Source of the DNA: Burkholderiaceae bacterium
GTDB lineage: Bacteria > Pseudomonadota > Gammaproteobacteria > Burkholderiales > Burkholderiaceae
Direction: 5' to 3'
Length of the DNA: 32,000 nucleotides
Assembly (NCBI GenBank): GCA_965234555.1
Contig: OZ248347.1
Span: forward strand, 1,523,270 to 1,555,269
The position numbers and the translations under genes were made by a program. Below are positions 7,314-26,927 of the stretch, one piece after another. Each line of letters starts with the position of its first letter. Position 1 is the stretch's first letter. The notes beneath the pieces were generated by a model, which made no database searches, was not told the origin of the DNA, and saw nothing but the letters and a program-made list of their open reading frames with translations.

Positions 7314-7514
7314 CTATAGTTTGACGTGTCGTTTAAAACGACATTTTTCTACTATTTTTTCAAACTCTACTGCCTCTTCAAACTGTTTGCGTAGTATCTC
7401 TTTGTCTTTGATGCGTTGAACTACTTCACGACCTGTCAGTACCGATTTATCGTTCAGAAGTTCAGATAAGGTCTTTTTGGGTGGTCTGATTTTCTTCTGC
7501 AATTTTTCACTCAT
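7314..7514 (-). CDS. hypothetical small basic protein (66 aa)
   Basis: ORF track; its last 9 codons (..CRFKRHVKL) are encoded across PAL-1. Confidence 0.4.
   Translation of the reverse strand: MSEKLQKKIRPPKKTLSELLNDKSVLTGREVVQRIKDKEILRKQFEEAVEFEKIVEKCRFKRHVKL
7327..7343. repeat. PAL-1: TGTCGTTTAAAACGACA (perfect, centre A)
   Basis: Read directly; one of 12 island-restricted copies. Confidence 0.95.
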
Positions 7515-7827
7515 ACATCTTCACACCTCAACAAATCCTTTCATCTATTTAATATTCAAGGTAGTAATAAATTTAATAAACCTATTAAACTTATGGTTAT
7601 TTTTTGACCAATAACAGTGTACCCTTGAGTTGTAAATATTACAGAACATTAGTCAACTTTTATATGACAGAAGAATCGAATTCTCAAAAATTAACTTTAG
7701 ATTTCTCTGGGATTTTTGTAATCTTTATTTTTGGAGGATTGTTTCTTGCTACATTGATAGCAGGGATATATATATTTCTGTTCCTGTTAGTCTATTTTTT
7801 TTCATTATTTACAAAACTCTAAGTAAG

Positions 7828-7992
7828 TCATACATCGTCACACCACCACCAATCCTTCTCATCTCGTTCATATTGAAGGTCAGGGTCGGTTGGTCGTTTC
7901 TTTAATTCCTGTTGAGTAAGCGAGTGATGCTCTTCATCCTGTAACTTACGTGAACGATATTGGGGTTTACCAAGGATTTCCACATCTGACAT
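7828..7992 (-). CDS. possible small ORF (54 aa, MSDVEILGKPQYRSRK...WWWCDDV)
   Basis: Translated by hand; below the ORF-track size cut-off; no strong RBS seen. Confidence 0.25.
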   Translation of the reverse strand: MSDVEILGKPQYRSRKLQDEEHHSLTQQELKKRPTDPDLQYERDEKDWWWCDDV

Positions 7993-8218
7993 ACACACTA
8001 GATTAGCACTTTTGACTAGGTTCAGAAAGTGTCAGGAATGGGTATTGATGGAATAACGGTTGGAGAGATTAAAAATGACACTATTTTTACTATACCCCTT
8101 AGTTCTTAACCAGCAGGGCCTATTAACAAACTTCAAACGCCTAAAACCCCCTGATTTTGAATCAAATGACGTATTTTTAACCTATGGTCAAAATTCACCT
8201 AGGGGTGAGAAAAAGTAG

Positions 8219-8434
8219 TTAAGGCTTGATTTTTTGTTGACTGAGTTTTTGCTGCTGTAAAACCAATTTGTGTTGCTTTTGAAAGGCACGCTCGCGTTTG
8301 AGAGCTTGTCTAGCAAGTTCAGCATTGCGCTTTAGATTAGCAATTCGTGCCTGTGCTGGTGTGAGTGGCCCCTTGGGTTTAATGGGTTTGAATTCATCAA
8401 AGCGCATGATTTTATTTATACCCTCAAGTTCCAC
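8219..8434 (-). CDS. hypothetical basic coiled-coil-like protein (about 60-71 aa)
   Basis: ORF track; the start is uncertain, with an alternative internal MRFDEF start. Confidence 0.4.
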   Translation of the reverse strand: MELEGINKIMRFDEFKPIKPKGPLTPAQARIANLKRNAELARQALKRERAFQKQHKLVLQQQKLSQQKIKP

Positions 8435-8439
8435 GGTTT

Positions 8440-8660
8440 AAATCATGTCGCATTCGGCTCTAGGCCAGCTGGCTCGCCTCTGCGATGTGGGCTTCAGCCC
8501 CCAACTCATTTCTATTCCCGCCAGCTGGCGAGAAATTCGTTGACGCCGTTACCCCTAAAGCGCACCAGCTGGTGCGGAGTCAACGGCTTGTGCTTCGCTG
8601 GTAGGGGTGATAGCTATCACCCCTCTTTGGGACTACCTTCGGTGCGCCCCATATACAAAT
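8440..8660. other. palindrome-dense non-coding region (candidate oriT, ori, or structured RNA)
   Basis: Perfect palindromes GCCAGCTGGC (8464-8473), CGCCAGCTGGCG (8519-8530), CGCACCAGCTGGTGCG (8561-8576) and AGGGGTGATAGCTATCACCCCT (8603-8624). GCGCACC (8560-8566) is complementary to GGTGCGC (8641-8647). Confidence 0.5.
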
Positions 8661-8662
8661 TA

Positions 8663-8679
8663 TGTCTTTTAAAACGACA
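8663..8679. repeat. PAL-2: TGTCTTTTAAAACGACA (1 mismatch)
   Basis: Read directly; abuts the stop codon of the 8680..9117 CDS. Confidence 0.85.
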
Positions 8680-9117
8680 CTACTTTCTAAAGCCAGCTCG
8701 TACTGCACCACTTGCCTGCTCAATTTGACCGTCGAGCTCACCAGCCTCTACAGCCCCTTTGATAATTTCCAGTGCTTTGATGAGCTCTTCGGGACTATTA
8801 ACCTCAACCGCTGATTTGCCTTTGACAAATTCAATGGTTTTAGCGCCGTATTTGACGTTTAGACAAACCTTGCCATCTTGCGCCACATACCACCAAGGTC
8901 GTACCCGCTTATTAATCTCCACGCTCTTGCGATTGCCCTCAAGGTCTTTGATAGTCTTAAACTTTTTGACAGTGAATATGCCACCTTCTTGCTGGGCTTT
9001 AGCAAACTGAATCTGCTCCCAGACTTTGGTTGCTAGCTTATTACGCCTGTGTAATACGGGCGGCATCGCAGTGGGTTTTTTGCTATTGGTTAATTTCAAG
9101 CTGTTTAATGCACTCAT
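8680..9117 (-). CDS. conserved island-associated hypothetical protein (145 aa, MSALNSLKLT...)
   Basis: ORF track 8680..9198, start moved to the ATG at 9115-9117 behind a strong AGGAGG RBS. I vaguely recall homologues in proteobacterial islands (possibly DUF6641); unverified. Confidence 0.6.
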   Translation of the reverse strand: MSALNSLKLTNSKKPTAMPPVLHRRNKLATKVWEQIQFAKAQQEGGIFTVKKFKTIKDLEGNRKSVEINKRVRPWWYVAQDGKVCLNVKYGAKTIEFVKGKSAVEVNSPEELIKALEIIKGAVEAGELDGQIEQASGAVRAGFRK

Positions 9118-9837
9118 ATTTCCTCCTATTAGTGAATGAGTACATACACAGTAGTTTCGGTCTTGCATATTGGGCAACCAGTTTTGCCAATCTGCCACAG
9201 AACCTAATAAATTTCGCCAGAATTCCCCTTCTTTTATTAGATCTCGCTAAATAAACAGGACAGCAGAGCAATCTGTATGCCATGTACCACTACTGAAATG
9301 AGCAGCGATACTCAATGTTTTATCGCCCTAAACCTAGTCAAGCGTGTTCGTAGGGATGGAAATTCTGAAGCAGTAGCAGAGACTTAGATTCACTACCCGC
9401 GAGGATGCCGTTGGCCTAGCTAGCCAGCATGAATTAAGTATATGAATAAGCTCAAAGATCGTAAGACTCAGTCTTACAGGATCACGAGAAAGCCCTGCTC
9501 ACACAGCAACTTTCAAACAAGACAGCGGTAGCCACTTCATGCTGTTGTCTATGTTGCGTTTTATAGCCGCATGTAAAAGGAGACCGCAAAACCGCCCTTG
9601 CCCATTTGGGTTGTGCCTGAAGTGGTGTAGTCAAGAACTCAGCGAAAGTCTATTTCGAAAGTCTTCTCTATCACTGAGCCTATTGCTTAAGGCTCAGTGT
9701 AGGTTGAATCTAGCGAAAATCAATCAAACTACTATCAAAAGAAGAAAGGGGTGATGAGCGACAAGCGAAATCACTGGTGAACGTAGTTCGCCATTGAATA
9801 TTTGTGTAATATATTGTTATAAATTTTTGGAGGATAT

Positions 9838-10212
9838 ATGGCTACAAAAAAACCAGCACCGACAAAGAAAACAGCTAAAGAAAAATTACTTGAAGAACAT
9901 ACTAGGGATTTAGATAGGCGTATGTGGAATATTCAAGATGAAATGATCGAGATGGGCAACAATATCGTTTCAGTATGGCTATCTGATGCAGATAGCCAAA
10001 ATATTTTTGAAGAATCAGTTGATTGGATATTAAGTTCCGAAGCCCAAAAAATGTTTGAATCCCAATCAGGAGTAATGGCGATTGAGTCTGTTAAATGTGC
10101 AATCTATCAATTTGAAAGACATCGTGAAGATAATTGGGACGAGGAAGATAATGAAGAGGAAACTAATACCTCGAAACTGTATGACGATGTGCGTGAATTC
10201 TTTAATGTTTAG
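9838..10212 (+). CDS. acidic hypothetical protein (124 aa, D/E-rich C-terminus)
   Basis: ORF track; GGAGG RBS 6 nt upstream; AT-rich codon usage. Confidence 0.55.
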   Translation: MATKKPAPTKKTAKEKLLEEHTRDLDRRMWNIQDEMIEMGNNIVSVWLSDADSQNIFEESVDWILSSEAQKMFESQSGVMAIESVKCAIYQFERHREDNWDEEDNEEETNTSKLYDDVREFFNV

Positions 10213-10372
10213 CTGTAAATACGAAGTAAGACTCTTATATCTCCCTTCCATACGTTTTTAAAATACTTTGTGGAATATCGTGGCAAAAATGCCACAAAAA
10301 ACCTAATAGAACTGCGCTTCTATTAGGTTTTATAGCTAAGTCATTGAATTTACAGAGGTCTTAAATCTGCCA

Positions 10373-10387
10373 TTTTCGGTTGCCCAA
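10373..10387 (+). promoter_or_regulatory. shared upstream motif TTTTCGGTTGCCCAA, 58 nt before the short recombinase start
   Basis: The same motif, in the same orientation relative to the gene, lies upstream of the integrase (15787-15801) and the GNAT gene (26895-26909). Confidence 0.5.
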
Positions 10388-10445
10388 ACCGAACCTAAGA
10401 AAACATACTGTAGTTGCTTATTTATTACTTTAAGGAGCTACTTTT

Positions 10446-11012
10446 ATGTCACAAGCAAAGGTTTTGAATTCTGTAGAACTGCGTCGCGTATTGGATTACG
10501 TGGCAACACGTAAACACAGCGCACGTAATCGCGCTATGCTGCTTTTAACCCACTTCGCGGGTATGCGGGTAGCGGAGGTGGCTAGTTTGCGCTTATACGA
10601 CGTTTTAAACGACAGCGGCACAATTAAAGAAGAAGTGCGCTTGAAACCCGATCAAACCAAAGGCAAATATGCCCGCACTGTCTACCTGAATTTACGTATA
10701 CAAAAGGAATTGGCGCAGTACATCAAATGTATTAATACCAGTGATCTCCAAAAGCCACTGTTCTATACCCAAAAGCGAGCGAGTTTTTCCCCAAATACCC
10801 TAGCGCAATACTTTTTATTCCTCTATCGCAATGTGGGCTTAGAAGGAGCCAGTAGTCATAGTGGGCGCAGAAGCTTTCTCACGCATTTGGCTAATAAAGG
10901 CACAGCCATTCACATCCTAAAGAGCTTGGCAGGTCATCGCAATATCAGCACCACTGCGGCCTATCTATATAGCAGCCCCGATCAACTCAAAGCGGCGGTG
11001 GAGCTGGTCTGA
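10446..11012 (+). CDS. short tyrosine recombinase (188 aa, catalytic domain only)
   Basis: Catalytic residues in order: R (FAGMRVAEV), HSGRRSF (HxxR), GHRNISTTAAYLY (H...Y). No N-terminal SAM-like or arm-binding domain. Confidence 0.85.
   Translation: MSQAKVLNSVELRRVLDYVATRKHSARNRAMLLLTHFAGMRVAEVASLRLYDVLNDSGTIKEEVRLKPDQTKGKYARTVYLNLRIQKELAQYIKCINTSDLQKPLFYTQKRASFSPNTLAQYFLFLYRNVGLEGASSHSGRRSFLTHLANKGTAIHILKSLAGHRNISTTAAYLYSSPDQLKAAVELV
10598..10614. repeat. PAL-3: CGACGTTTTAAACGACA (2 mismatches), inside the short recombinase CDS
   Basis: Read directly; encodes ..DVLND.. Confidence 0.7.
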
Positions 11013-11411
11013 TTATTTGGTCTTTTTAGACTTAGCTTTTGGTTTAGCCTTTACTTTAGCTTCAATTGCTTTGGGATTCTTACCGATATCCACAACCACT
11101 TTGCCCGTGTAATTTTCAATCACTTCGGTGTGGTTAGGATCTAAGGTCAACTCTGGAAAGTCTGTTTGAATCTGATGTCCGTACCACGTACAAAAGACTT
11201 TTTTCGTATGCTTTCCCGATTTAGAAACTTTGATATCCCGACCATTGACCACGGCAAACACACCCTCAATGGTTGCTAATCGGTATTTGGCATTTTTTAC
11301 TTGAATGACTGTGACATTACTTAATTTCTGAGTCTTCAAAGGAGTGGCATGCGAATCAGTATCTGGACATTTCTTACTATTCCACTTCTCTGCCTTTAGA
11401 TAAAAATCCAT
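11013..11411 (-). CDS. hypothetical protein with a lysine-rich C-terminal tail (132 aa)
   Basis: ORF track; GGAGG RBS; its stop abuts the convergent recombinase stop with no spacer. Confidence 0.55.
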   Translation of the reverse strand: MDFYLKAEKWNSKKCPDTDSHATPLKTQKLSNVTVIQVKNAKYRLATIEGVFAVVNGRDIKVSKSGKHTKKVFCTWYGHQIQTDFPELTLDPNHTEVIENYTGKVVVDIGKNPKAIEAKVKAKPKAKSKKTK

Positions 11412-11483
11412 ATAGCCTCCTATAACCCTTATTAACGATCATTAACTGTTGCTAATCATTATTAGGATAGCAAAGAACTTACA

Positions 11484-12281
11484 TTACTTCTTTTTGGCTC
11501 GTTTTTGGGTAGTAGTCCAGTCATGAGGGTCTGTGCAGGGAAAACGCAGCTCAGTGGCATGCGCCATGAGGTTTTGTACCTGCTTGAGAATATCGCTGGC
11601 CACATTAGCCGCTTCAATGCGCAGATCTACGGGCACATCCACACGTTTAAGTAGTCCTCTAAACAAGCTAGGGTGTAGCTCCATGTCTTTGGCAAAGTTA
11701 TATAACTTGAAATCCTTACGATCTTTTTGTTTTTCGTAAGCACGATAGACGGTTAGCCACCGTGAGATGGTCGGATAGGTCAATTTGGTTTCACGATATT
11801 GATGCACTGGGGCAGTACTATGATCCCAGCGATCTTTATTCTCGGTGTAATAGTCACTGTGCTGGCGCAAGATCTCCTCGAACTGTTCCCGCAACGCTTT
11901 GGGGTGCAGATTTAGTGGTACCTCAATTTTTAGAATGGGCGGCTTTTTACTGCTCGTTTGAGTCTGCGTCTTAATCTGTGGCTCGGTGATTTCAATGGGT
12001 TGATAGGGAACGTCTTCTGCAAAGATCTCATAGCCTCTGGTTTTCCACCACGACGCAAAATCCGTTTTACTCAGATCGCCAAATTTTTCCCATGTCTCTT
12101 CAGCTGCTCTACTTTTAAAGACGCCACTCTCGCTACTGTCTCGATACCACGGGGATGTTTGCAGCGTTTCAAACCACGCTTCGTAGAGCGTACCTTTGGC
12201 TAATTTGGCAGAGCTGTCGATGGTCTGCGGAAAAATCCGATCCTCTGCAGACAAGCCTTTTAAGAAGAATTTCACAGTCAT
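11484..12281 (-). CDS. hypothetical protein (265 aa)
   Basis: ORF track; long ORF divergent from 12406..13182; no family recognised. Confidence 0.6.
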   Translation of the reverse strand: MTVKFFLKGLSAEDRIFPQTIDSSAKLAKGTLYEAWFETLQTSPWYRDSSESGVFKSRAAEETWEKFGDLSKTDFASWWKTRGYEIFAEDVPYQPIEITEPQIKTQTQTSSKKPPILKIEVPLNLHPKALREQFEEILRQHSDYYTENKDRWDHSTAPVHQYRETKLTYPTISRWLTVYRAYEKQKDRKDFKLYNFAKDMELHPSLFRGLLKRVDVPVDLRIEAANVASDILKQVQNLMAHATELRFPCTDPHDWTTTQKRAKKK

Positions 12282-12405
12282 TTAGGTCGATCCCATCAAC
12301 GCCAAATCCCTAATTTTTTTAGTGTTTTGGCAGTTTAATGGAACTTATTCGAGGCCACTGTTTCACCCTTTTATCAACCCGCTTCGAATATATATCGGAG
12401 GTTTT

Positions 12406-13182
12406 ATGATCGTATCAGACCAAGTAGTACCTGCAGTAATTAACGTATCAACTGTCGTTTTAAACGACAACGCTACTCCCGTTGTTGGGCCAGCTAACCT
12501 CGAACTACGTTCGATGGAAGCCAAGCGCATCGATTGGGAAACTGGAGCCTTTCGCACCAGCAATCAAGCACTCTATCAAGTGTTAGCAGAGTGTCTAGCG
12601 TATAGCGGTGAGTTGCCTGTCAGCATGGCCAAGCTGCGTAATGGTGCACTAGCAACTTTTTATAAAGAGCGTGGCTATCGCTACAAAGAAGAAGCGCCGT
12701 TGGTCACTCGTGTGGTGCGTGCGGTATTTGGTGATATTAATCGCCGTCGCATTAGCACCTACTCACTGGTGCTGCGTCAAGCACAAAAAGAAAGTATTGC
12801 GTATGCCGATTTGCCAGCGTGGATTGAAGAGCGTGGCGGTATTCAAGAGATTCGTCTTAGCCGCAGCACGACCTTTGTGAGCCCTGCGCAAAAAGCCAGT
12901 GTGGGCAAGATGTACTTTGAAGGCAAAGCTGATTTAGGAACTGTTCAGTCCGAGTGGCTCTCGGTTGAAGCAGATCCCAGCTTTATCGGACAGGCCTGCG
13001 TGTTATTGGCTGAGCAACAGTCTGATGGCAGCTTTCATGTGCGAGCAGTCATTCGTAATCAAACGGCATTAAAAGCTGCCTATGCCGCCTTGTATGTCAA
13101 GCAAAAGGATGCACAGGCTAGAGCAGAAGCAGAAGTCGCTGCTGCCAACGACGCTGACGGTGCGCTTGCACAACAGGCCTAA
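12406..13182 (+). CDS. hypothetical protein (258 aa, Ala-rich C-terminus)
   Basis: ORF track 12322..13182, start moved to the ATG at 12406 behind a GGAGG RBS; followed by a hairpin. Confidence 0.6.
   Translation: MIVSDQVVPAVINVSTVVLNDNATPVVGPANLELRSMEAKRIDWETGAFRTSNQALYQVLAECLAYSGELPVSMAKLRNGALATFYKERGYRYKEEAPLVTRVVRAVFGDINRRRISTYSLVLRQAQKESIAYADLPAWIEERGGIQEIRLSRSTTFVSPAQKASVGKMYFEGKADLGTVQSEWLSVEADPSFIGQACVLLAEQQSDGSFHVRAVIRNQTALKAAYAALYVKQKDAQARAEAEVAAANDADGALAQQA
12453..12469. repeat. PAL-4: TGTCGTTTTAAACGACA (perfect), inside a CDS
   Basis: Read directly; encodes ..VVLND.. in the same reading frame as PAL-3. Confidence 0.95.
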
Positions 13183-14424: not shown

Positions 14425-14450
14425 AGCCCACTTTCGAGTGGGCTTTTTTC
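14425..14450 (+). terminator. Rho-independent terminator AGCCCACT-TTCG-AGTGGGCT + T6
   Basis: Read directly. Confidence 0.8.
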
Positions 14451-14452: not shown

Positions 14453-14469
14453 TGTCGTTTTAAACGACA
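14453..14469. repeat. PAL-5: TGTCGTTTTAAACGACA (perfect)
   Basis: Read directly; lies 3 nt beyond the integrase stop codon. Confidence 0.95.
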
Positions 14470-14472: not shown

Positions 14473-15738
14473 TCAAGCTAACTTATCCGCCACCATGGTT
14501 GGTGTCAATTTGGAATAGTGCCGCTCAATCATGGCGGCACTATTACCCATCTGTTTAGCCAGTGTATGAATATCCACATCACGCTCGATTAAGGATAGGG
14601 TCGCGTAAGTATGCCTAAAGCTATACATGCTGCGCCGTCGTCCGGTGTTGTCAAACAATAGGCCACAGTCTTTCATCAGCCACTTAAAAGCACTGACCAG
14701 ATCATAAGGTCGTGTGCCATCGGGGTAGCGCCACAGATACTCTTCACGCTGCTCGGCGAGCAATTCATCTAGAGATAAAAGCGCCATATCCGCAAATCTT
14801 GATTTAATGCGCTCAATCACTGGGATCGCTTCTTTTCTGGCGATTAACCAACGCCCTCCCGTTTTGCCATCCACCCAAATCCTTAGATACTTAGTACCTG
14901 ACTTATCCATGTGCCACTCCAAGTGTCGCCACTGAATAGTCAGTGACTCCGTACCATGGCGCATACCAGTAGCGAGTAGGATCTCAATGTAGTCACGCAG
15001 TAAGTGTCTGCCCGCATGAGCTTTAGCGGATTTACCACCTTCCACCCACGTAGTCATAAAGTTCATTAGATAGTCCACCTCTTGCCTAGAAAACGCGGGT
15101 CTAGCCACTCCCTTCTCACCTTTGGTGTTAAGTCTAGCGATCAAGTGACGATCACTGAGCCACCCTTTGGCAATGGCTAGGTCATAGACCTTGTTATAGG
15201 CCACCGAATGGGTGGCGAGCGTTGAGGATTTGGCCTTGCGTCCCATCTTAAGATTGCGCCATGCTTCATAGTCACCCACCACCTTGTGATTGATTTTGAC
15301 AAGATCAAAATTACCGAAAAATGGGATGAGATAGGCTTTGATCACAGCCAAATAATCCACGTAGATCTTTTTGCCCACTTCACTATCGAGATCACGTTGT
15401 AGTTCTTGTGCCAATTGCTCTGCCACCACTTTAAACTTTTTCGGGGAGATTGGAAAACCCATTTCTTCCATAAAGCGAGCCCGATCATAGATCTCACCCG
15501 CTTTCTTTTTGGCATAGTCTAGGTCTGAATAGCCTGTAGTGATGCGATACCACTGCTTGTTGTAGAGCTTAAAGGTCATCTGCCACTTGTTACTGCGGGT
15601 ACGCTTATACAACGTGACTTCACCATCGCGGATATGAACTAAACGTCCCGTGGCTAGATTTTCGAGTTTTTTGAGGTGAGGACTTGTTCTGGGCTGCTCA
15701 GCAGTTTGAGCTTCTGAAAAAGCAAGAATCTGTGCCAT
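14473..15738 (-). CDS. tyrosine-type site-specific integrase (421 aa)
   Basis: Catalytic R (ATGMRHGTE), HxxR (FRHTYATL), and H...Y at the C-terminus (GNSAAMIERHYSK); N-terminal arm-type-like domain. Confidence 0.9.
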   Translation of the reverse strand: MAQILAFSEAQTAEQPRTSPHLKKLENLATGRLVHIRDGEVTLYKRTRSNKWQMTFKLYNKQWYRITTGYSDLDYAKKKAGEIYDRARFMEEMGFPISPKKFKVVAEQLAQELQRDLDSEVGKKIYVDYLAVIKAYLIPFFGNFDLVKINHKVVGDYEAWRNLKMGRKAKSSTLATHSVAYNKVYDLAIAKGWLSDRHLIARLNTKGEKGVARPAFSRQEVDYLMNFMTTWVEGGKSAKAHAGRHLLRDYIEILLATGMRHGTESLTIQWRHLEWHMDKSGTKYLRIWVDGKTGGRWLIARKEAIPVIERIKSRFADMALLSLDELLAEQREEYLWRYPDGTRPYDLVSAFKWLMKDCGLLFDNTGRRRSMYSFRHTYATLSLIERDVDIHTLAKQMGNSAAMIERHYSKLTPTMVADKLA

Positions 15739-15804: not shown

Positions 15805-15821
15805 TGTCGTTTAAAACGACA
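15805..15821. repeat. PAL-6: TGTCGTTTAAAACGACA (perfect, centre A)
   Basis: Read directly; 67 nt upstream of the integrase start. Confidence 0.95.
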
Positions 15822-16019
15822 TAGCCAGAGAGGGCTATTTGGCCTGCGGATTACTACAACATCGTAATCATAATAAACATTATGTGATTATTTGGAGAGA
15901 AGAGTTGGTACTTATAAAATTGATTGTTATTCACATTAACGAAAAACTAAAATGAATTACTTGTGATTAAGCTTTTCTTTAGCAGGCATCAATACGGAAA
16001 ATTCTAATAAGCGGGCTTT

Positions 16020-17339
16020 TTATTGAGGAAAAAGTTCTAGCTGTTTTTTTATTTTTTTCGTTTTTGGCCCACCTTTCCCAGTTTCTTTAATAACATTAGC
16101 AACACTTATTGCCTTAAGCATTTGATTCGCAACTGCTCGAATTACTGGTACACATACAGAATTACCAAACTGTTTATAGGTTTGGGCATCAGAAACTGAG
16201 TTAATAATAAATGACTCTGGGAAACCTTGTAAGCGAGCGCATTCTCTTGGCGTAAGCTTTCTTGGATTCTTATTGAGTTTACTTTGGTCAATCAAAATCT
16301 CGCTTCCATCTTTGTAATATCTTGCGCTTATAGTACTTGTGTAAGGACTTTCTTTAGAAAAAAGAGAGTACCCAAATCCATTTCCTTTTATCTGATGCTC
16401 TTCTTTTCTTCGTAAATGGCCTTGCCATAACTTATCTGACAATGTATATTTTTCATCAATTTTTTCAGAGTTTTCAAGAATGTCGCCTAATCTTGTTGGG
16501 GTCATTGGTGGGTCTGGCCAACTAAAGACGTCCTCAAAATCAACATTCTTTCCAAAGTAAGCAGTATCAAAGCCTACGATAAAGATTCGCTCTCTATTCT
16601 GTGGGACTCCAAAATCTCTTGCCCTCAAAACTTTATAGAAGACTTGGTAACGAAGTTTTGCTGATAATGCTTTTCTTGCCTCATCAGACATGGGGATAGT
16701 ATCTGGAATAATCTGTTCGCTTTTGCCTTCCAATATTTCCAAGATATGCTGAAGGGTTCTTCCTTTATCGTGGCCTTTTAATTGCTTTACATTTTCAAGA
16801 AGAAATGCTTTAGGCATCTTTTCAGCTAGGATACGTTGTATCTCAAAAAACATTGTTCCGCGAGAATCATTAAAGCCTTTTTTTAATCCTGCCTGTGAAA
16901 ATGCCTGACAGGGAAATCCACCCAATAAGATGTCATGATCAGGTATATCTTTGGCTTTTATTTTTGTAATGTCTCCATTCGGTAGGTGACCAAAGTTGGT
17001 GGCATAAACTTTTTGAGAAAACTTATCCCATTCAGATGTGAATACACATTTGCCACCAAGCTCTTGAAATGGTAAACGAATACCACCTATGCCTGCGAAA
17101 AGATCAATAAACTTAAATGAATGCTTTACTTTTGCTGGCTGTTTAAATGGAACGTGTGTAGTTAATTGTTTTATTTGCTCCCATTTGGTAGGGGAGGGCT
17201 CATGCTCACCTCTCTCCCAACCGCCTACGGTCCTCTCGCCATGGTTTTTTAAGTTCATTAGGTCTGCGAACTCTATTTGGGTTAGCCCCAATAGCTCTCT
17301 TTTTTCCCTGATATATTTGGCTTTATCTGTAGATTTCAT
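16020..17339 (-). CDS. DNA (cytosine-5)-methyltransferase with an N-terminal XRE-type HTH (439 aa)
   Basis: Motifs FIDLFAGIGG (I), GGFPCQAFS (IV), ENV (VI), QNRERIF (VIII), TPRECARLQGFP (IX), GNSV (X). The ISARYYKDGSEILI segment recalls Dcm/EcoRII/SsoII-type target-recognition domains. Confidence 0.92.
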   Translation of the reverse strand: MKSTDKAKYIREKRELLGLTQIEFADLMNLKNHGERTVGGWERGEHEPSPTKWEQIKQLTTHVPFKQPAKVKHSFKFIDLFAGIGGIRLPFQELGGKCVFTSEWDKFSQKVYATNFGHLPNGDITKIKAKDIPDHDILLGGFPCQAFSQAGLKKGFNDSRGTMFFEIQRILAEKMPKAFLLENVKQLKGHDKGRTLQHILEILEGKSEQIIPDTIPMSDEARKALSAKLRYQVFYKVLRARDFGVPQNRERIFIVGFDTAYFGKNVDFEDVFSWPDPPMTPTRLGDILENSEKIDEKYTLSDKLWQGHLRRKEEHQIKGNGFGYSLFSKESPYTSTISARYYKDGSEILIDQSKLNKNPRKLTPRECARLQGFPESFIINSVSDAQTYKQFGNSVCVPVIRAVANQMLKAISVANVIKETGKGGPKTKKIKKQLELFPQ

Positions 17340-17483
17340 AGGCTTTTAACTTTTAACTTATCCTGATTTTTACCCTGATTTTTATTTAATTTTAGCTTCA
17401 TTCTCCATAAAAGATACTCACGTCTTTGAATAGGCACGGCATCTCGTGGTATGTTGGAAGCTTCTAAATGCTAGGGCTATTTA

Positions 17484-18236
17484 ATGTCTGAAAAGGACAT
17501 AATCATCAGGCTGTTTAATGAGCGAGTTAGGGGCAGGCATCCTGAAACAACTTCATTTAATCAGCGTCACGATGGAAAGGTTGGGCATTGGCTTGAGAAA
17601 CAAATGGGTATTCATGCCAATAGCAGTAATACACCAGATTTATTTGGTTATGAAATGAAAAATGACACAACTTCTAAGACCACATTTGGGGATTGGTCCG
17701 CGAACTATTACATATTCAAGAGAAATAATCCTTATGGGCTTACTCGAAGTGACTTCCTTCGTATTTTTGGAAAACCAAATCCTCTAAAAAATGGACGTCA
17801 CTCTTGGTCAGGCGAACCCATACCATCAATAAAGGGGGTAAATAAGTTTGGGCAAAACTTATTCATAGATAGTGAAAATAATATTCACGCAAAGTATCAC
17901 TATTCAAAAGATGAACGACCAGACAAAGTCTCTATTGTTCCCTTTAGCTTGAGAATTGATGATTTGACAATAGCGCGATGGGATGCCGGTAAGCTTCAAA
18001 AAAAAGTTGAAAATAAATTTAATAAGATGGGTTGGTTTAAATGTTTACGGGATTCTACAGGCGCATACTCATCTATTGTGTTTGGTGACCCAATAAATTA
18101 TGAAACTTGGATTAGCTTAGTCAAAACTGGTGACATTTACTTTGATAGTGGTATGTATGAAGGTAACATAAGGCCTTATTCTCAATGGAGAGCTGATAAT
18201 GCTCTTTGGAACAAGCTCATAACGAGTAAACACTGA
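17484..18236 (+). CDS. type II restriction endonuclease candidate, MutH/BcnI/MvaI-like PD-(D/E)xK (250 aa)
   Basis: GHWLEKQMGI-x9-PDLFGYEMK resembles the MutH/Sau3AI/BcnI catalytic motif. Divergent from the methyltransferase and AT-rich. Confidence 0.7.
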   Translation: MSEKDIIIRLFNERVRGRHPETTSFNQRHDGKVGHWLEKQMGIHANSSNTPDLFGYEMKNDTTSKTTFGDWSANYYIFKRNNPYGLTRSDFLRIFGKPNPLKNGRHSWSGEPIPSIKGVNKFGQNLFIDSENNIHAKYHYSKDERPDKVSIVPFSLRIDDLTIARWDAGKLQKKVENKFNKMGWFKCLRDSTGAYSSIVFGDPINYETWISLVKTGDIYFDSGMYEGNIRPYSQWRADNALWNKLITSKH

Positions 18237-19870: not shown

Positions 19871-19991
19871 TAATTACTAGATTTTGATATAGACTGAAAG
19901 TACATCAAGAGATGGCTTTGTCGCCACAGCAACCTGCTAACGCAGTAAGGTGCTAAAAAGATGAGACTCTATACGAGTAATCAAAAGCGAC

Positions 19992-20016
19992 AAACCCGTC
20001 TTTTGGCGGGTTTTTT
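19992..20016 (+). terminator. hairpin AAACCCG-loop-CGGGTTT + T tract
   Basis: Read directly; lies inside the 5' extension of ORF 19961..20770, which argues for the later start. Confidence 0.5.
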
Positions 20017-20770: not shown

Positions 20771-20771
20771 T

Positions 20772-20788
20772 TGTCGTTTTAAACGACG
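20772..20788. repeat. PAL-7: TGTCGTTTTAAACGACG (1 mismatch)
   Basis: Read directly; begins 2 nt after the stop of the upstream CDS. Confidence 0.85.
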
Positions 20789-21635: not shown

Positions 21636-21652
21636 TGTCATTTAAAACGACA
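21636..21652. repeat. PAL-8: TGTCATTTAAAACGACA (1 mismatch, centre A)
   Basis: Read directly. Confidence 0.85.
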
Positions 21653-21699: not shown

Positions 21700-21730
21700 G
21701 GGGCGGAATCGAACCAGGGCCGAGGATGTC
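21700..21730 (-). repeat. L-box copy; minus strand reads like a tRNA T-loop plus 3' acceptor remnant (..GGTTCGATTCCGCCCC)
   Basis: Similar to 22788-22823 and 23863-23901. Confidence 0.75.
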
Positions 21731-21869
21731 TGATCCACCCAACTAATTTACCCCTAAATCACCCACTTTGAGGAGATAGGATATGGTTGGTAGGCTTTTA
21801 GCCATCACACCCTGCTTGCATAATGAAAGGCTTGTGTTTCATATTCAATCGATGGGTTAGTGCTACCAG

Positions 21870-22691: not shown

Positions 22692-22787
22692 ATTTTTCTA
22701 ATATTTTTATTGAGGTTATTTAACTTTAACATTCAAATTTGATTAAGAATGAACAAATCATCTCAAGCTAGTTATGATGTTTCTTGC

Positions 22788-22823
22788 GTGGCCCGAGGCA
22801 AAATCAGCTTGGGCTGAGCATGC
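22788..22823 (-). repeat. L-box copy (diverged)
   Basis: About 30 of 36 positions match 23865-23900 by hand alignment. Confidence 0.7.
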
Positions 22824-22840
22824 TCATCGCGTGCTTATTC

Positions 22841-22857
22841 TGTCGTTTTAAACCACA
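22841..22857. repeat. PAL-9: TGTCGTTTTAAACCACA (1 mismatch)
   Basis: Read directly; followed by a degenerate R-box (..GCACAGGGATGGAACATC..). Confidence 0.85.
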
Positions 22858-23007
22858 TCTACTGGCACAGGGATGGAACATCTTTGTAGCTCCCCCCACC
22901 GCTACATGAAGCCTTGCTTTAAAGAACATTACTTAATTGCGCTCAATAAATTAACCAGGCCGCGAAAATAAGATTACGTCTAAGTAATCGTAAATGTAAA
23001 ATCTGTA

Positions 23008-23682
23008 ATGAAAATTATTACTAATTCAATATCAAATGATCTTATGCTAAAAAATTTATTTGTGATCATTGTTTCTTGTGCCTTGATAGGCTGCTCTGCA
23101 ACGATGGGGCCAAGTGGGGATCAAACTAGGCCTGGCATTATTGTATTACCCACAAGCGGCGGCGTTCATCATGAGAATTCTTATGCCTCACAACTCAGCA
23201 GAAAAGGTTTTCAGGTAGTGGTTGCTGACTACCATCAACGCGGTGGCACAGACAATATAACCTTAGCCTATGATGCTCTCCGTAAAGATCCTCGAGTTGG
23301 AAAAATTGGAATGGTTGGGTTTAGTCGTGGAGCAGTTATGGGCGCAAATCATGCTTATTTTCTCCACCAAAACAGCGATCGAAAAATTGATGCGATTGTG
23401 AGTTTTTATATTGGGCCCACAACGCCACATGCTAATACATCAATACTGCCGATATTATTTTTACAAGGTGAATTAGATAATTATGTTAAGCCAAATCAAT
23501 TGATACAGTTTTGTAACGCTTTGGATGCCAGCGGCAAGCGTTGTAAGGTAAAAGAGTTTAAAAATGTGGGGCACGCTTTTGATCAAACGAGAACCCTGCC
23601 AATTTATTCAGGCTTTAATCGCGAGGCTACTGAAGATTCCTATGATCTAACCATACAATGGCTTAATCAGTGGCTTAAATAA
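23008..23682 (+). CDS. lipoprotein alpha/beta hydrolase (dienelactone-hydrolase family), 224 aa
   Basis: Lipobox LIGC; nucleophile elbow GFSRGA; C-terminal GHAF. Confidence 0.7.
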   Translation: MKIITNSISNDLMLKNLFVIIVSCALIGCSATMGPSGDQTRPGIIVLPTSGGVHHENSYASQLSRKGFQVVVADYHQRGGTDNITLAYDALRKDPRVGKIGMVGFSRGAVMGANHAYFLHQNSDRKIDAIVSFYIGPTTPHANTSILPILFLQGELDNYVKPNQLIQFCNALDASGKRCKVKEFKNVGHAFDQTRTLPIYSGFNREATEDSYDLTIQWLNQWLK

Positions 23683-23711
23683 TTACTTTTGTTGTGCCGA
23701 CTATCAAAAAA

Positions 23712-23728
23712 TATCGTTTTAAACGACA
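23712..23728. repeat. PAL-10: TATCGTTTTAAACGACA (1 mismatch)
   Basis: Read directly. Confidence 0.85.
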
Positions 23729-23756
23729 TCGACTGACATAAGGATGAATAATTGAC

Positions 23757-23775
23757 GCGTCCTTTTAAAGGACGC
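23757..23775. repeat. variant palindrome GCGTCCTTTTAAAGGACGC (different arms, same TTTTAAA centre)
   Basis: Perfect 9-1-9 palindrome read directly, inside the gene-less PAL-10 to PAL-11 interval. Confidence 0.8.
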
Positions 23776-23862
23776 TTCATGATGGGGATATCCGGCTCTA
23801 ATGGCGTCTAAGCCTACCAAGCCCAAAAGAAAATAGCCCAACAAGTGGGCTATTGAGATTCT

Positions 23863-23901
23863 TGGTGGCCCGGGGCGGAATCAACTAGGGCTGAGGATGC
23901 C
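23863..23901 (-). repeat. L-box copy; minus strand ends ..GATTCCGCCCCGGGCCACCA (T-loop end, T-stem, 7-nt acceptor strand, A, CCA)
   Basis: The spacing is exactly that of a tRNA 3' end. The T-stem 5' strand does not pair, so this is a remnant and not a gene. Confidence 0.7.
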
Positions 23902-23918
23902 TAACTCTAACTCTAGAC

Positions 23919-23935
23919 TGTCGTTTTAAACGACA
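23919..23935. repeat. PAL-11: TGTCGTTTTAAACGACA (perfect)
   Basis: Read directly; flanked by an L-box on the left and an R-box on the right. Confidence 0.95.
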
Positions 23936-23966
23936 AATTCCATAACCTCACGGATGAGATATTCCC
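23936..23966 (+). repeat. R-box copy
   Basis: AATTCCATAACCTCACGGATGAGATATTCCC; continues into a promoter-like block homologous to 26958-27010. Confidence 0.85.
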
Positions 23967-24019
23967 ATGGTTGGGCATGGCTGGCTCTTGAGACCTTTTG
24001 ACCTTATAATTACTAGTTC

Positions 24020-24050
24020 GGCGAATTAGCTCAGCTGGTTAGAGCGACGG
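24020..24050 (+). pseudogene. tRNA-Met 5' fragment (positions 1-31) with the island-borne upstream block
   Basis: 31/31 identity to 27011-27041; the upstream ~85 nt is homologous to 26928-27010. Confidence 0.9.
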
Positions 24051-24065
24051 GATCCGACTCCGAAC

Positions 24066-24455
24066 CTACAAAAGCGGTTGAACAAACGCAAACCATCCAC
24101 CTATCATTAATAAGCTAAGGCTAATCCAATAAATTCGTTCTGAGAATTTCCGTGTTTTTAAGCAGGCATCACGCATCTTAGGATCAATCGGACATGGGGC
24201 ATTTCGATTACGCCACTGCAATATGCCGCCAATGAGCATCAAACCACTACTTAATGCAAATATCGCCTCTTTATGCTCGCTAATCCACACAATCTTTGGA
24301 AATACAGATACTAAAGAGGCGAGCGTTGCCCCCGCACCCAAACTGACCAGGAGTGCGGGGATGGCACAGCAAATGAGGGTACTCGAACTCGCAAAGAGGC
24401 TAATTAAAGAACTGATATAGCTTGTCTTTGTTTCATTCAAGCCGTCTTGACTCAT
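24066..24455 (-). CDS. MerT-like heavy-metal transport membrane protein (copy 2)
   Basis: 129 aa; same CC and C..C motifs as copy 1. Confidence 0.6.
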   Translation of the reverse strand: MSQDGLNETKTSYISSLISLFASSSTLICCAIPALLVSLGAGATLASLVSVFPKIVWISEHKEAIFALSSGLMLIGGILQWRNRNAPCPIDPKMRDACLKTRKFSERIYWISLSLLMIGGWFAFVQPLL

Positions 24456-24778
24456 TTTTTATCCTTCTGCTGAGCCCTAAACTGGGCAACTGTCTGGGAG
24501 ATCGTTTCAATCTTGACCACGTCGTAGCCTGAGTCTTTAATCTCTTGACTAATCAGCTTCTCGTTTAAGGTTTTACCTTCCTTTGCCTCAACGACCACTA
24601 CTTTATTTTTGAGATCCACAAAAACGGCTTTGGTCTCATCCATCTTTGAAATACTTTTTTCAATACCTTGGGCACAAAACGAGCAAACCATGCCATTGAC
24701 AGTGACCTTCATGCTTGCCAGTGCGGTCTGACTCAAACCCATTAATGCGATTGCGATGATTAAGTTGATCTGTTTCAT
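24452..24778 (-). CDS. periplasmic HMA-domain protein (copy 2)
   Basis: 108 aa, GMVCSFC; 6 differences from copy 1. Confidence 0.85.
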   Translation of the reverse strand: MKQINLIIAIALMGLSQTALASMKVTVNGMVCSFCAQGIEKSISKMDETKAVFVDLKNKVVVVEAKEGKTLNEKLISQEIKDSGYDVVKIETISQTVAQFRAQQKDKK

Positions 24779-24788
24779 CTTGATTCTC

Positions 24789-25439
24789 CTAATAGTTATA
24801 CATAAAGTTAAAACGCAGTTGTCCTGATAAATTGGCGCCTGCCTCTACAAAGTACCGTTTATGAATGACCCTTACCATCGGGGTGAACTCATACTGCTTA
24901 GAAACAAAGGTCATACGCCTTGCCTCAACCACGATCCAGGGCTGAGGCTCATCGTAGTCAGCCTCATAAAAGGAGGCGCCCAAACGAGCCGTAGTGATAT
25001 TGCTCGTGGCCCCCTGTGCCGCATAGACCCGGGCTGATGCCATGGAATAAAAGCGGGTAGTCTCATAATCCACCTGAATACCGGGTGACGCCATGGCTTT
25101 TGAGCCACCAAAGGTATTTCCGGTTGTAGAGCCAAGGCCGCCAATAAACCAGATATTGGCTTGAGCCTCTGGCAGATTCCAGCGCGCTACCTTGCGGGTG
25201 TAAACCGCTTCAAGATTTTGCTGTTTTGACACAGAGTTATCCGTTTGCATAGCGCTTGCTGAAATTCCAAATGCATCGTTTGCGGTAGTGGCATAGTTCA
25301 AGCCAAACTCCTGATAGGTTTTACTAAAGTCACCCATCAGCATCCAGCTGTTCTTAAACCCCATCGGTGCCGCAAATGAATTTGAGACAGCTCCCACCAC
25401 TAGCAGAAAAAAACTCGCCAGACTAATCGCTTGCTTCAT
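24789..25439 (-). CDS. putative outer-membrane beta-barrel protein (copy 2)
   Basis: 216 aa; mature part nearly identical to copy 1. Confidence 0.55.
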   Translation of the reverse strand: MKQAISLASFFLLVVGAVSNSFAAPMGFKNSWMLMGDFSKTYQEFGLNYATTANDAFGISASAMQTDNSVSKQQNLEAVYTRKVARWNLPEAQANIWFIGGLGSTTGNTFGGSKAMASPGIQVDYETTRFYSMASARVYAAQGATSNITTARLGASFYEADYDEPQPWIVVEARRMTFVSKQYEFTPMVRVIHKRYFVEAGANLSGQLRFNFMYNY

Positions 25440-25717
25440 TTGAGTTTTTCCATCACTGTGATATCAAGCGTTCCATCAACAACCTTAATCTGGAATCGAA
25501 CCCTGTCTCCAGGTCGATATTGATCCAATGGAATCTCCTTAACCACCCCAAAAGGCATGGTCATCGGGGCCATCTTGATACTGGGTATGTACTCATGCTT
25601 GAGCACAATACGGCTACGTGATTGATCAACACGCACTACTTCGCCATTAACCCATTCGGGGCTGGCATAGACATAGACCGAAAATAGACTGAGGAATACA
25701 ACAATCAATCGCTTCAT
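25436..25717 (-). CDS. CusF-like periplasmic metal-binding protein (copy 2)
   Basis: 93 aa; MAPMTMPF motif. Confidence 0.8.
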   Translation of the reverse strand: MKRLIVVFLSLFSVYVYASPEWVNGEVVRVDQSRSRIVLKHEYIPSIKMAPMTMPFGVVKEIPLDQYRPGDRVRFQIKVVDGTLDITVMEKLK

Positions 25718-25772
25718 TTAACTCTCCAAAAAAGATCAAACCCAAAATTTGGGCGGACTTATCCTAGGGGAG

Positions 25773-26138
25773 TTAAAGAATGGGTGGCTTATTAGCGACC
25801 GAGAGGTCGATACCCGTTAGTGTTTTGAGGGAGGTAGAAAAAGTTTGTGTAAATCGATCTGTTATTAGCGCAGGAACAGAATTTGGTAATAAACCAAAGG
25901 CCATGCATAAAGTACATGAGTAGCATCGATCCCCATTCACTTCAATGGCTTGGTGACTATCCATGGAATGTTGAGCTGCATCACCATTTTGGTGACAAGG
26001 ATGGGCTGCTACCGACTCCTGCATCTGGCTCACGGGGGTGACAAGCATTTTTTGCATGCCCATATCCAACACCGCCCAAGCTTGGACAGGTATTAGAGCA
26101 ATCAAGGAAACAAGCAATAATCTTTTAAACATAGACAT
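25773..26138 (-). CDS. small secreted Cys/His-rich protein (copy 2, most diverged member)
   Basis: 121 aa; HPCHQ and CYSCTLC conserved, central region differs from copy 1. Confidence 0.55.
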   Translation of the reverse strand: MSMFKRLLLVSLIALIPVQAWAVLDMGMQKMLVTPVSQMQESVAAHPCHQNGDAAQHSMDSHQAIEVNGDRCYSCTLCMAFGLLPNSVPALITDRFTQTFSTSLKTLTGIDLSVANKPPIL

Positions 26139-26215
26139 AGCTTAGCACCATCAGAATAAGTCTGCAGAGTAGCTTTGTCAGCTAAAAATCCCCAATTTGC
26201 TGCAGTCCACAATTT

Positions 26216-26249
26216 GGTGAAATAGCTCAGCTGGTTAGAGCGATGGAAT
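26216..26249 (+). pseudogene. diverged tRNA-Met-like 5' fragment (GGTGAAATAGCTCAGCTGGTTAGAGCGATGGAAT)
   Basis: 3 substitutions relative to 27011-27044 (2 in the acceptor stem, 1 in the anticodon stem); same upstream context as fragment 7086. Confidence 0.8.
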
Positions 26250-26855
26250 GGACAATCGAAAACTCAAATTAGCATCTACTGCTGGGAATTCGTCTGCCAA
26301 AATACTGTAAACACAAGTATCTCGAATACTAGCTTTGGCATCTGGGTGACGATTAATTTGATGACTTCGTAATACGCCATCTAATTTCGCCCCCAATCTC
26401 TCAATACCTCGACGACTTTGATGATTAAAGAAATGAGTACGAAATTCCACTGCAATACAATCAAATTTTGTGAATGCGTGACGTAACAATAGCAATTTAC
26501 ATTCCGTATTAATTGCTGTTCGCTGAGCCGACTGTCGATACCAAGTAGACCCTATCTCGAGTCTGCGATTATCCTGATCAATATTCATGTAAGTTGTCAT
26601 TCCAATGGGGCTCCCTTTGGCATCCAAAACACAAAATGGATTCATAGAGCCCAACTGCTGTAAGCCCAAACGCCTATCAATCTCCTTTGCCATTGCCTCA
26701 GGCGAAGGAATGCTTGTGTACCAAAGTTTCCAAAGTTCACCATCTCTAACAGCTTCACATAAACCATCATGATGCGCCATTGTTAATGGCACTAATGTGG
26801 CATGCTTACCTTGTAGGGTTACTGATTCCGAGAATTTCATAGCGGGATATGTCAA
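26235..26855 (-). CDS. GNAT-family N-acetyltransferase (RimJ/RimL-like), 206 aa
   Basis: Length and layout (..LRHAF......IAVEFRTHFFNHQSRRGIERLGAKLDGVLR..) are typical of the GNAT fold. The last ~5 codons are encoded by the tRNA remnant. Confidence 0.75.
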   Translation of the reverse strand: MTYPAMKFSESVTLQGKHATLVPLTMAHHDGLCEAVRDGELWKLWYTSIPSPEAMAKEIDRRLGLQQLGSMNPFCVLDAKGSPIGMTTYMNIDQDNRRLEIGSTWYRQSAQRTAINTECKLLLLRHAFTKFDCIAVEFRTHFFNHQSRRGIERLGAKLDGVLRSHQINRHPDAKASIRDTCVYSILADEFPAVDANLSFRLSIPSL

Positions 26856-26894
26856 TGGCTGTGAATCTTCATTCTGCCATACGGATGGAGAACT

Positions 26895-26909
26895 TTGGGT
26901 AACCGAAAA
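26895..26909 (-). promoter_or_regulatory. shared upstream motif (TTTTCGGTTACCCAA on the minus strand), 39 nt before the GNAT start
   Basis: See 10373-10387; PAL-12 follows 1 nt away. Confidence 0.45.
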
Positions 26910-26910
26910 C

Positions 26911-26927
26911 TGTCGTTTTAAACGTCA
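26911..26927. repeat. PAL-12: TGTCGTTTTAAACGTCA (1 mismatch)
   Basis: Read directly; 83 nt upstream of the intact tRNA. Confidence 0.85.

Follow-up and report, generated by a model that had tools for sequence, protein, structure and literature searches.

A 17 bp palindrome, TGTCGTTTWAAACGACA, here called the PAL box, is present in twelve copies (at up to 2 mismatches) between positions 7327 and 26927 of the window, a 32,000 nt stretch of contig OZ248347.1 from a Burkholderiaceae bacterium, a freshwater Polynucleobacter, where it lies within DNA that has been inserted into a tRNA-Met gene. We favour, at about an even chance, the reading that PAL is a predicted protein-binding box that is cognate to, and co-evolves with, a family of integrative islands, and that it is not a site of strand exchange. 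This reading is preferred because the box is a sharply bounded 17 bp sequence and a strict dyad that has two symmetric alleles and almost no hybrids between them, because its allele is uniform across an element (cargo included) and co-segregates with two element genes, and because the copies stand in the att arms, at the borders of transcription units and at the 5' ends of the genes for an integrase (int) and for a protein called o286. An earlier note on the window had taken the palindrome for the core or crossover site of a tyrosine recombinase; the crossover lies instead in the anticodon loop of tRNA-Met, where displaced 5' halves of this gene end at 7124, 24050 and 26249.

Sequence, placement and distribution of the box

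Five of the window copies are perfect, six have one mismatch and one has two, at exactly the coordinates and in exactly the mismatch classes that the earlier note had given; the number expected in the window from 100 dinucleotide shuffles is 0.00. At up to two mismatches the window flanks, 1-7326 and 26928-32000, are empty, as had also been reported, and a search of the window for isolated half-sites found none. The perfect copies differ solely at the centre base, which is A or T, so this part of the earlier description holds for them. A second palindrome class, PAL2 (CGTCCTTTTAAAGGACG; the GTCC class, which as a duplex is TGTCCTTTWAAAGGACA), is found at 23758-23774 and is the thirteenth related palindrome of the window.

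Across 135 unique copies the information content falls to background 1-2 bases beyond the 17 bp, and only 5 bp plus a weak AA/TT are conserved in each arm. The box is formally readable as 5-7-5 and equally as an 8-1-8 dyad, and its likeness in size to a tRNA anticodon stem-loop, once thought suggestive, is a formal resemblance only. Positions 5 and 13 are G/C in 120 copies, C/G in 37 and asymmetric in 18, and they are never A/T; the centre base is invariably A or T, 61 versus 61 overall. PAL is almost always outside long open reading frames (ORFs), and the genes on its two sides are convergent in 48 cases, tandem in 70 and divergent in 15, the convergent arrangement being enriched. Among 60 stop-proximal copies, 44 lie within 0-10 nt past the stop codon, and the distance from a box to a downstream start codon is 30-100 nt. 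The placement at module borders proposed earlier is thus mostly right, the exceptions in the window being the copies at 12453 and 10598, which are in codons of o286 and of the 188-aa recombinase int188, respectively. PAL was rejected as part of a longer hidden repeat or miniature inverted-repeat transposable element, since its flanks are random, and as a promoter element, since the promoter scan matches fewer copies than in shuffles. A literature search gave no match to the PAL sequence and no palindrome described for Polynucleobacter islands, which agrees with the earlier view that the site is unlike any named att family.

An exact-box scan of 185,579 GTDB species genomes listed at least 120 eight-kb blocks with matches. 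Among the matches listed, most are from Polynucleobacter, of which dozens of species are represented, and from contigs of freshwater betaproteobacterial metagenome-assembled genomes (MAGs), and those in unrelated taxa are single, background-like copies. In the listed Polynucleobacter contigs of more than 1 Mb, exact copies are limited to a single 8-kb block or to two that adjoin, and a tRNA-Phe or tRNA-Met gene is often next to them, in keeping with the enrichment in islands over core DNA that had been suggested. Judged by the matches listed, the box is confined to tRNA-linked islands of Polynucleobacter and of related freshwater betaproteobacterial MAG contigs. A set of 2.9 M viral contigs gave just 7 single box matches, which is the background level, and a phage origin of the box was rejected on this ground. 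Most of the comparison loci (given L numbers below) were collected through an exact box, but those in the allele tests were retrieved by their proteins.

Box alleles and their co-segregation with element genes

The proteins commonest near boxes define a conserved element that consists of int188, the 421-aa integrase int421, DUF6641, AAA220, o286 and o265. Among the most conserved of its genes is int188 (76-99% identity), with DUF6641 comparable (72-89%), and the elements are mosaics. Three box alleles are found in them: GTCG (G-type, PAL), GTCC (C-type, PAL2) and an asymmetric GTCC/GTCT allele (PAL3, TGTCCTTTTAAAAGACA). Within loci, 121 of 137 allele pairs are concordant, against a shuffle mean of 85, and 0 of 5000 shuffles reach the observed value. 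The boxes of protein-retrieved loci read CCCCCCC (L128), CCCC (L130), CCCC (L132), CCC (L133), GGGGGG (L138) and GGGGG (L140), and the asymmetric allele, found in the ENA metagenome contigs L128 and L129, points the same way as the gene beside it in each of the 5 unambiguous cases. Because each element lineage carries one allele at all positions, a reader of the box would have to be element-linked. Rare G/C hybrid boxes, GTCGTTTTAAAGGAC, occur in L007 (7816), L030 (5489) and L141 (3273), and those of L007 and L030 stand directly before a 3' tRNA-Phe fragment.

The o286 gene has a box in its 5' coding part, and of 117 homologues 50 have VVLND in the N-terminus, which corresponds to PAL, and 30 have VLLKD, which corresponds to PAL2, with 0 hybrids; the N-terminal region around the box is disordered and hypervariable. 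Contigs retrieved through VLLKD proteins have C-type boxes only, over 10-18 kb and with cargo included, and those retrieved through VVLND proteins have G-type boxes only. Two other versions of this motif, VVSND and VVQND, were rejected as extra alleles because they are single decayed sites in otherwise G-type elements. Some integrase genes also have a coding box, read as CRFKR (L035, L135 and L138) or SFKTT (P0123), and the others have a box 67-108 nt upstream; a box also follows the integrase stop codon in nearly every element. The boxes in 5' coding regions thus use all three reading frames (VVLND, CRFKR and SFKTT), and because they do, the translations indicate that coding boxes are selected at the DNA level.

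Positions that discriminate between the alleles number 21 in o286, 21 in int421, 1 in int188, 0 in AAA220 and 1 in o265, so that, in the proteins compared, the box allele co-segregates among element genes with int421 and o286 only, and not with int188, AAA220 or o265. The C-type o286 proteins form one clade and the C-type int421 proteins are mutually 90-98% identical, and G-type and C-type elements share the same tRNA-Phe anticodon-loop core. As the genes most linked to the allele, int421 and o286 are the candidate box readers. The AlphaFold2 model of int421 (pLDDT 86) is three-domain and lambda-Int-like, with a beta-sheet and helix at residues 34-92, and its best fold matches are to full-length lambda Int (1z1g/1z1b) over ~400 columns that include the arm-binding domain. 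Seven of 25 fixed G/C differences in int421, which are differences at the level of clades, are within residues 48-71 of the N-terminal domain. A rule that pairs Lys with the G box and Arg with the C box in beta-strand 2 of int421 held in 11 integrases and was then refuted by two new contigs. The true start of o286 is at 12406, and its model is moderate (pLDDT 77). The o286 family has 411 database homologues, is abundant in freshwater metagenomes and is always beside a clamp-loader-like AAA+ ATPase; 43 residues are invariant in a 60-sequence alignment.

Putative role of the box

The islands insert in the anticodon loop of tRNA-Met or tRNA-Phe in Polynucleobacter, and their box would be recognised as a 17 bp dyad by a sequence-specific protein that is either element-encoded or co-evolving. 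Its copies are placed in three ways: they form the outer limit of what is conserved in each att arm, they follow immediately on the stop codons of both element and cargo genes, and they bracket the integrase gene and lie within the first ~20 codons of o286. Most likely the box would act as a nucleoprotein site. It might be an arm-type or intasome site of the integrase through which int is also autoregulated; it might be a distributed operator or transcription roadblock, similar to the stoperators of phages, that insulates modules and controls int and o286; and both may hold.

Several observations weigh against a protein-binding box. As in a recombination site, the central 7 bp are better conserved than the arms (of 38 single mismatches, the outer arms hold 32), and the asymmetric allele does not vary among its 13 copies, even at the centre base. 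The co-segregation rests on essentially one GTCC clade and one asymmetric lineage and could reflect phylogenetic linkage, and the specificity prediction failed for the P0123 and P0125 integrases, which have Arg yet G boxes. For o286 there is no Pfam, PDB sequence or fold match, and Pfam, PHROGs and NCBIfam find no helix-turn-helix (HTH), ParB or Xis domain among all the element ORFs and no other known DNA-binding domain in the small ones, which look acidic or non-DNA-binding. Many boxes are kilobases from any core, and conserved copies occupy codons 16-21 of o286, positions past DUF6641 and past int188, and cargo, whereas arm-type sites as a rule occur in attP only and lack perfect dyad symmetry. 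Finally, the confinement of the box to islands rests on the at least 120 blocks listed.

Insertion sites and mosaic junctions

Exact 5' portions of tRNA-Met are present at 7086-7124, 24020-24050 and 26223-26249, and the intact tRNA-Met(CAT) gene is at 27011-27087 (+). Because of these halves (at 7086, 24020 and 26223) and the intact gene, the island of the window is three tandem insertions into the tRNA-Met anticodon loop, each of which brought a new 5' half and promoter. The earlier note had seen one island here; its boundaries needed this revision, and the restriction of the box to island DNA stood. The displaced half at 7086-7124 (+) comprises tRNA positions 1-39 at 100% identity, ends in the anticodon loop and marks the true left junction, and the 5' half of the intact gene arrived with the last inserted element.

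A five-gene copper/HMA/CusF cluster together with the tRNA-Met promoter is found twice, at 4919-7124 and 24066-26249 (75-83% identity), and the second copy is flanked by 5' tRNA-Met halves. The middle segment, made up of this second cluster and a native-type tRNA promoter, looks like a captured foreign chromosomal flank from another strain. Co-transfer of foreign chromosomal flank has been proposed for tycheposons (10.1101/2020.12.28.424599). The native chromosomal flank (4919-7085), including the tRNA-Met upstream region at 7003-7085, is without a box, and the element-borne tRNA-Met upstream regions (boxes 23919 and 26911) carry one box 84 nt before the tRNA sequence. Boxes 26911 and 7327 flank the tRNA-Met core, and the same layout is seen in a unit at 23712-23935 (see below) and in L140. 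The anticodon loop of tRNA-Phe is the site of related elements, among them L140, which is 16.9 kb long and has a full tRNA-Phe on one side and a 5' half on the other.

An alternative that we consider unlikely is that PAL is the crossover site of an element tyrosine recombinase, int188 or the integrase, by which modules are exchanged, inverted and captured, with the allele setting compatibility. All-against-all alignments of 76 loci gave 50 presence/absence differences. Most borders of these differences fall in 3' tRNA-Phe repeats, a single repeat being left where the insert is absent, and 0 of the 50 have a two-box insert opposite a single-box empty site. PAL was therefore rejected as an insertion border, tRNA-Phe repeats explaining the insertions and deletions, and the expectation that presence/absence breakpoints would fall in PAL failed, as none of the 50 is box-bounded on both sides. 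Three of 76 replacements do have all four borders at boxes (L013, L076 and L112), as exchange at boxes would give, but they are no more than three, and 21 have three or four borders at tRNA repeats. Box-to-box inversion was rejected, as the sole candidate, the ambiguous pair L057/L103, lacks the second box that such an inversion requires.

Of 1414 alignment ends, 16.4% are no more than 12 nt from the centre of a box versus 1.2% at random, with a peak at the far edge of the box; this excess of homology blocks that end at the box, ~13x above chance, speaks for crossover there, but any terminal element that gene units share should produce it too. Exact ends of this kind are seen in an integrase fragment at 15805-15865 and in L057, a 6.5-kb long-read contig with a 543-bp direct repeat (2-542 and 5269-5811, 98% identity) that consists of a 116-aa gene and its PAL; the right edge of the repeat is the edge of the box, and the DNA beyond each copy differs. 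Module order and orientation also vary between elements, with boxes at the joints. The well conserved TTTWAAA centre, the homogenised sites within an element (even of the asymmetric allele, centre base included) and the rare G/C hybrids in L007, L030 and L141 would likewise suit a crossover site. The centre base, however, flips between orthologous sites (A in L001 versus T in L033 and L042) and is 36 T versus 24 A relative to the upstream gene, so it lacks polarity and does not define the orientation or compatibility classes once ascribed to it, and only 5 bp are conserved per arm. The coding boxes of o286 and int are in different frames, and exchange between them would destroy genes. The case for crossover at the box is weakened further in that no residue of int188 tracks the box allele and that elements of different allele share the tRNA-Phe core. 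The alignments indicate that the box is a very frequent mosaic junction and not a demonstrable insertion site.

A more specific form of this alternative, to us a shade less probable still, is that the boxes are joints of a module-exchange system in which an island recombinase (int188 or the integrase) joins boxes of the same allele, the three alleles being compatibility groups. If this were true, a second cassette system, akin to integrons or pdif modules, would operate atop tRNA-directed integration; it would shuffle and invert box-ended genes and move them from island to island among streamlined freshwater bacteria. If PAL is instead a protein-binding box, its shared terminal 17 bp would be a portable homology patch, and mosaic junctions would accumulate at it since this sequence closes every module.

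In related loci 3' tRNA-Phe repeats form arrays, with as many as nine in 8 kb, and bound 0.5-2-kb cassettes. Four Polynucleobacter 8-kb blocks (L037, L015, L113 and L032) have 6-9 direct repeats of the last 25 nt of tRNA-Phe, and each repeat pair encloses one to three small genes (toxin-antitoxin pairs, an acyltransferase, DUF3024 and others), so that they resemble cassettes, with no integrase in the block.

Hairpin and host-signal alternatives

That PAL is a hairpin read in single-stranded DNA or RNA, either a repetitive extragenic palindromic (REP)-like element or a 3'-end stabiliser or terminator, and is kept by base pairing, seems to us improbable. Its perfect dyad has a predicted hairpin energy of -7 to -8.6 kcal/mol, and G:C changes symmetrically to C:G with almost no hybrids, but this covariation affects a single stem position, is only between G:C and C:G and is accompanied by no other compensated variants. 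The loop centre is strictly A or T, and in the asymmetric allele an mRNA hairpin would have a C-A mismatch in the very orientation that the allele takes beside genes. The abundance of copies 0-10 nt past stop codons (the 44 of 60 gene-end-proximal copies above) and the enrichment between convergent genes would suit a 3'-end function; however, none of these 60 copies is followed by a T-run, just 2 of the 12 window copies pass the terminator scan, and genuine terminators adjoin boxes (e.g., 14425-14444), and for these reasons PAL was rejected as an intrinsic terminator. The uniformity of the allele within an element, moreover, needs a trans-acting reader. A REP element or bacterial interspersed mosaic element, a kind that has hundreds of extragenic copies throughout a chromosome together with a RAYT gene, was rejected because exact copies are in 1-2 neighbouring 8-kb blocks per listed contig, the box being island-restricted, and because no HUH/Y1 transposase (RAYT) domain is present among the window ORFs.

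Least of all do we expect PAL to be a host-factor site or uptake-type sequence, a genus-wide signal that is merely common in islands: the same 17-mer is indeed in dozens of Polynucleobacter species and in related freshwater betaproteobacterial MAGs, and G+C box pairs are downstream of tRNA-Phe irrespective of the resident element, but exact copies cluster in 1-2 8-kb blocks per listed >1-Mb contig, the chromosomal tRNA-Met flank in the window has no box, and the alleles follow the element and not the host; a DNA uptake sequence in particular, which would have thousands of copies across the genome and be enriched in core genes, was rejected, as the box is clustered, island-linked and absent from 12 kb of core DNA in the window.

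Comparison with known systems

The stoperator motifs of Cluster A mycobacteriophages vary between lineages and track their cognate repressors (PMC6550527). Like them, PAL is a short site that is repeated mostly at gene borders (~20-35 copies for stoperators, 12 in 20 kb for PAL); stoperators may overlap start and stop codons, and PAL alleles are uniform within an element, the asymmetric one being co-oriented with genes. The many copies at gene borders and a variant that is lineage-specific and co-varies with an element gene are what a distributed operator has. The two differ in that the stoperator is a 13-bp asymmetric site of a phage bound by a monomeric HTH repressor (L5 gp71-type), whereas PAL is a 17-bp perfect dyad of a non-phage island; in addition no repressor gene is recognised, PAL copies are also in the att arms, and the island cargo presumably must be expressed.

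Similarity to the arm-type sites of lambda-like (heterobivalent) integrases is found in the location of PAL in both arms, where it lies ~50-280 bp from the true core and belongs to the element, the host flank having none, and in the three-domain architecture of int421 and an allele that follows the integrase clade while the tRNA-Phe core is constant. Classical arm sites (lambda, L5 and HP1) are 9-11-bp non-palindromic repeats restricted to attP; PAL, unlike these, is a perfect palindrome with most copies kilobases from the core and some in coding sequence.

In the pdif (XerC/XerD) modules of Acinetobacter plasmids and in the attC cassettes of integrons, short inverted-repeat sites flank 1-5-kb modules and similarity between replicons stops at the site, and similarity between sequences stops at PAL in the same way. 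A pdif site measures 28 bp (11-6-11), whereas attC is an imperfect hairpin of 57-141 bp with R''/L''/L'/R' boxes that is found beside an IntI integrase with attI and Pc. PAL differs from both in being a 17-bp palindrome without conserved flanks or centre polarity and in that the insertion borders are tRNA fragments. An integron attC was rejected for this size and symmetry, the random flanks and the integron integrase models, which reach just 39 and 23 bits where the cut-offs are 265 and 435. The KorB operators (OB) of IncP plasmids, a 13-bp palindrome in 12 backbone copies of which some are in promoters and others are far from promoters or inside genes, are all read by one element-encoded global regulator; in the PAL elements, unlike there, no ParB/KorB-like protein was detected, and the host of the box is an integrated island and not a plasmid.

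In layout and gene content, as distinct from profiles of the hallmark proteins DUF6641, int188, o286 and AAA220, the islands resemble tycheposons and additive flexible genomic islands, which are tRNA-seeded, with tandem insertions separated by partial tRNAs (10.1101/2020.12.28.424599; PMC10872708). They have in common with these an inward-facing tyrosine recombinase, a small AAA+/unknown module, restriction-modification (RM) and metal cargo and a foreign flank. Term searches of both papers found no repeated palindromic box.

Polynucleobacter is among the most abundant freshwater bacterial genera, and islands drive its strain-level ecology. The island family defined here has the anticodon loops of tRNA-Met and tRNA-Phe as insertion sites, RM systems, metal genes and hydrolases as cargo, and a private 17-bp box with at least 3 lineage-specific alleles. 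Were the box a distributed operator or arm site, it would give a handle on the silencing and excision of islands and on non-interference with tandem neighbours; were it a recombination joint, it would mark a new cassette system. Either way it is a cheap, specific marker for islands and module borders in metagenomes, and allele co-variation offers a direct experimental route to the protein that reads it.

Box copies and neighbouring features of the window

The window has a G+C content of ~43%, and its genes include two tyrosine recombinases (the claim that two are encoded is correct, both the 188-aa and the 421-aa protein being real), an AAA+ ATPase, a DUF6641 protein, two dienelactone hydrolases, a C5-methylase/LlaMI-like RM pair and the copper/HMA/CusF cluster in its two copies. 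On its outer side the conserved left arm ends in the perfect box at 7327-7343, which is 203 nt away from the tRNA-Met crossover (7124/7125), and homology between the window and L024 spans 6735-7344, ending at the edge of this box. The next copy, 8663-8679 (1 mismatch), abuts the stop codon of the DUF6641 gene (8680-9198 (-)), and L065 and L098 have a box there too. Between the DUF6641 gene and int188 there is a full-length match to the Rfam Polynucleobacter-1 RNA (RF01718) at 9300-9439 (+) with 79 bits and an E value of 2e-15, and this orphan RNA motif may belong to the island family.

The gene for int188 (10446-11012 (+)) encodes a catalytic domain only, of a length similar to FimB/FimE. Within it is the doubtful copy with two mismatches, 10598-10614, in codons for YDVLND; the exact inner 15-mer of this copy is found in just 3 of 140 loci, and the copy is probably a coding by-product of this recombinase motif. 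A perfect copy, 12453-12469, occupies codons 16-21 (VVLND) of the 258-aa o286 gene (12406-13182 (+)). Two more perfect copies bracket int421 (14473-15738 (-)), whose arm-binding-type N-terminal domain comprises residues 34-92. The first of these, 14453-14469, is between the true terminator at 14425-14444 and the integrase stop codon, and homology to L035, L102 and L003 begins at it. The second, 15805-15821, is 67 nt upstream of the integrase start and is also the end of a 61-nt remnant (15805-15865 (-)) of the N-terminus of another integrase, ...RRPNSPLWLCRFKRQ, which ends exactly at PAL; the remnant, VVVIRRPNSPLWLCRFKRQ, is just upstream of the intact int421 gene. A match to tRNA-Met positions 37-47 at 15843-15853, within the remnant, was rejected as coincidence.

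Four of the copies with one mismatch are at 20772-20788, which is 1 nt past the stop codon of a 269-aa ORF, at 21636-21652, after which come 48 nt of arm sequence and, in reverse, a 3' tRNA-Phe fragment (21700-21733), at 22841-22857, in the divergent region between the two dienelactone hydrolase genes and with a decayed PAL2 ~58 nt downstream, and at 26911-26927, in the element-borne right arm 84 nt upstream of tRNA-Met. The remaining copies are the outer boxes, 23919-23935 (perfect) and 23712-23728 (1 mismatch), of a complete attP-like junction unit at 23712-23935 (-). On the minus strand this unit reads PAL (23919-23935), 32 nt, the 3' end of tRNA-Phe (23857-23882), a terminator (23832-23854), ~55 nt, PAL2 (23758-23774), 29 nt and PAL (23712-23728). 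Such a ~220-bp unit of PAL, tRNA-Phe 3' end (25 nt), terminator, PAL2 and PAL recurs, dozens of loci matching 23700-23939 with ends at the outer boxes, and it looks like a P-core-P' junction between tandem elements. A fixed pair in which one box is G-type and the other C-type, at a distance of 45-46 bp and separated by a conserved spacer of 29 nt, tcgactgacacagggatgaataattgac, is found downstream of tRNA-Phe whatever the allele of the resident element, in L001, L017, L032, L059, L060, L113 and L114 and at 23712-23774 of the window.

Within the cargo, a SAM-I/IV riboswitch (19897-19994 (+), 66 bits) with its own terminator at 19992-20013 precedes the 269-aa ORF. The RM cargo at 16020-18236 is a C5 cytosine methylase with an N-terminal HTH that adjoins a divergent LlaMI/MvaI-BcnI-type endonuclease, and related elements have Type I, Type ISP, Eco57I-like or DUF6339 RM or defence cargo at this place instead.

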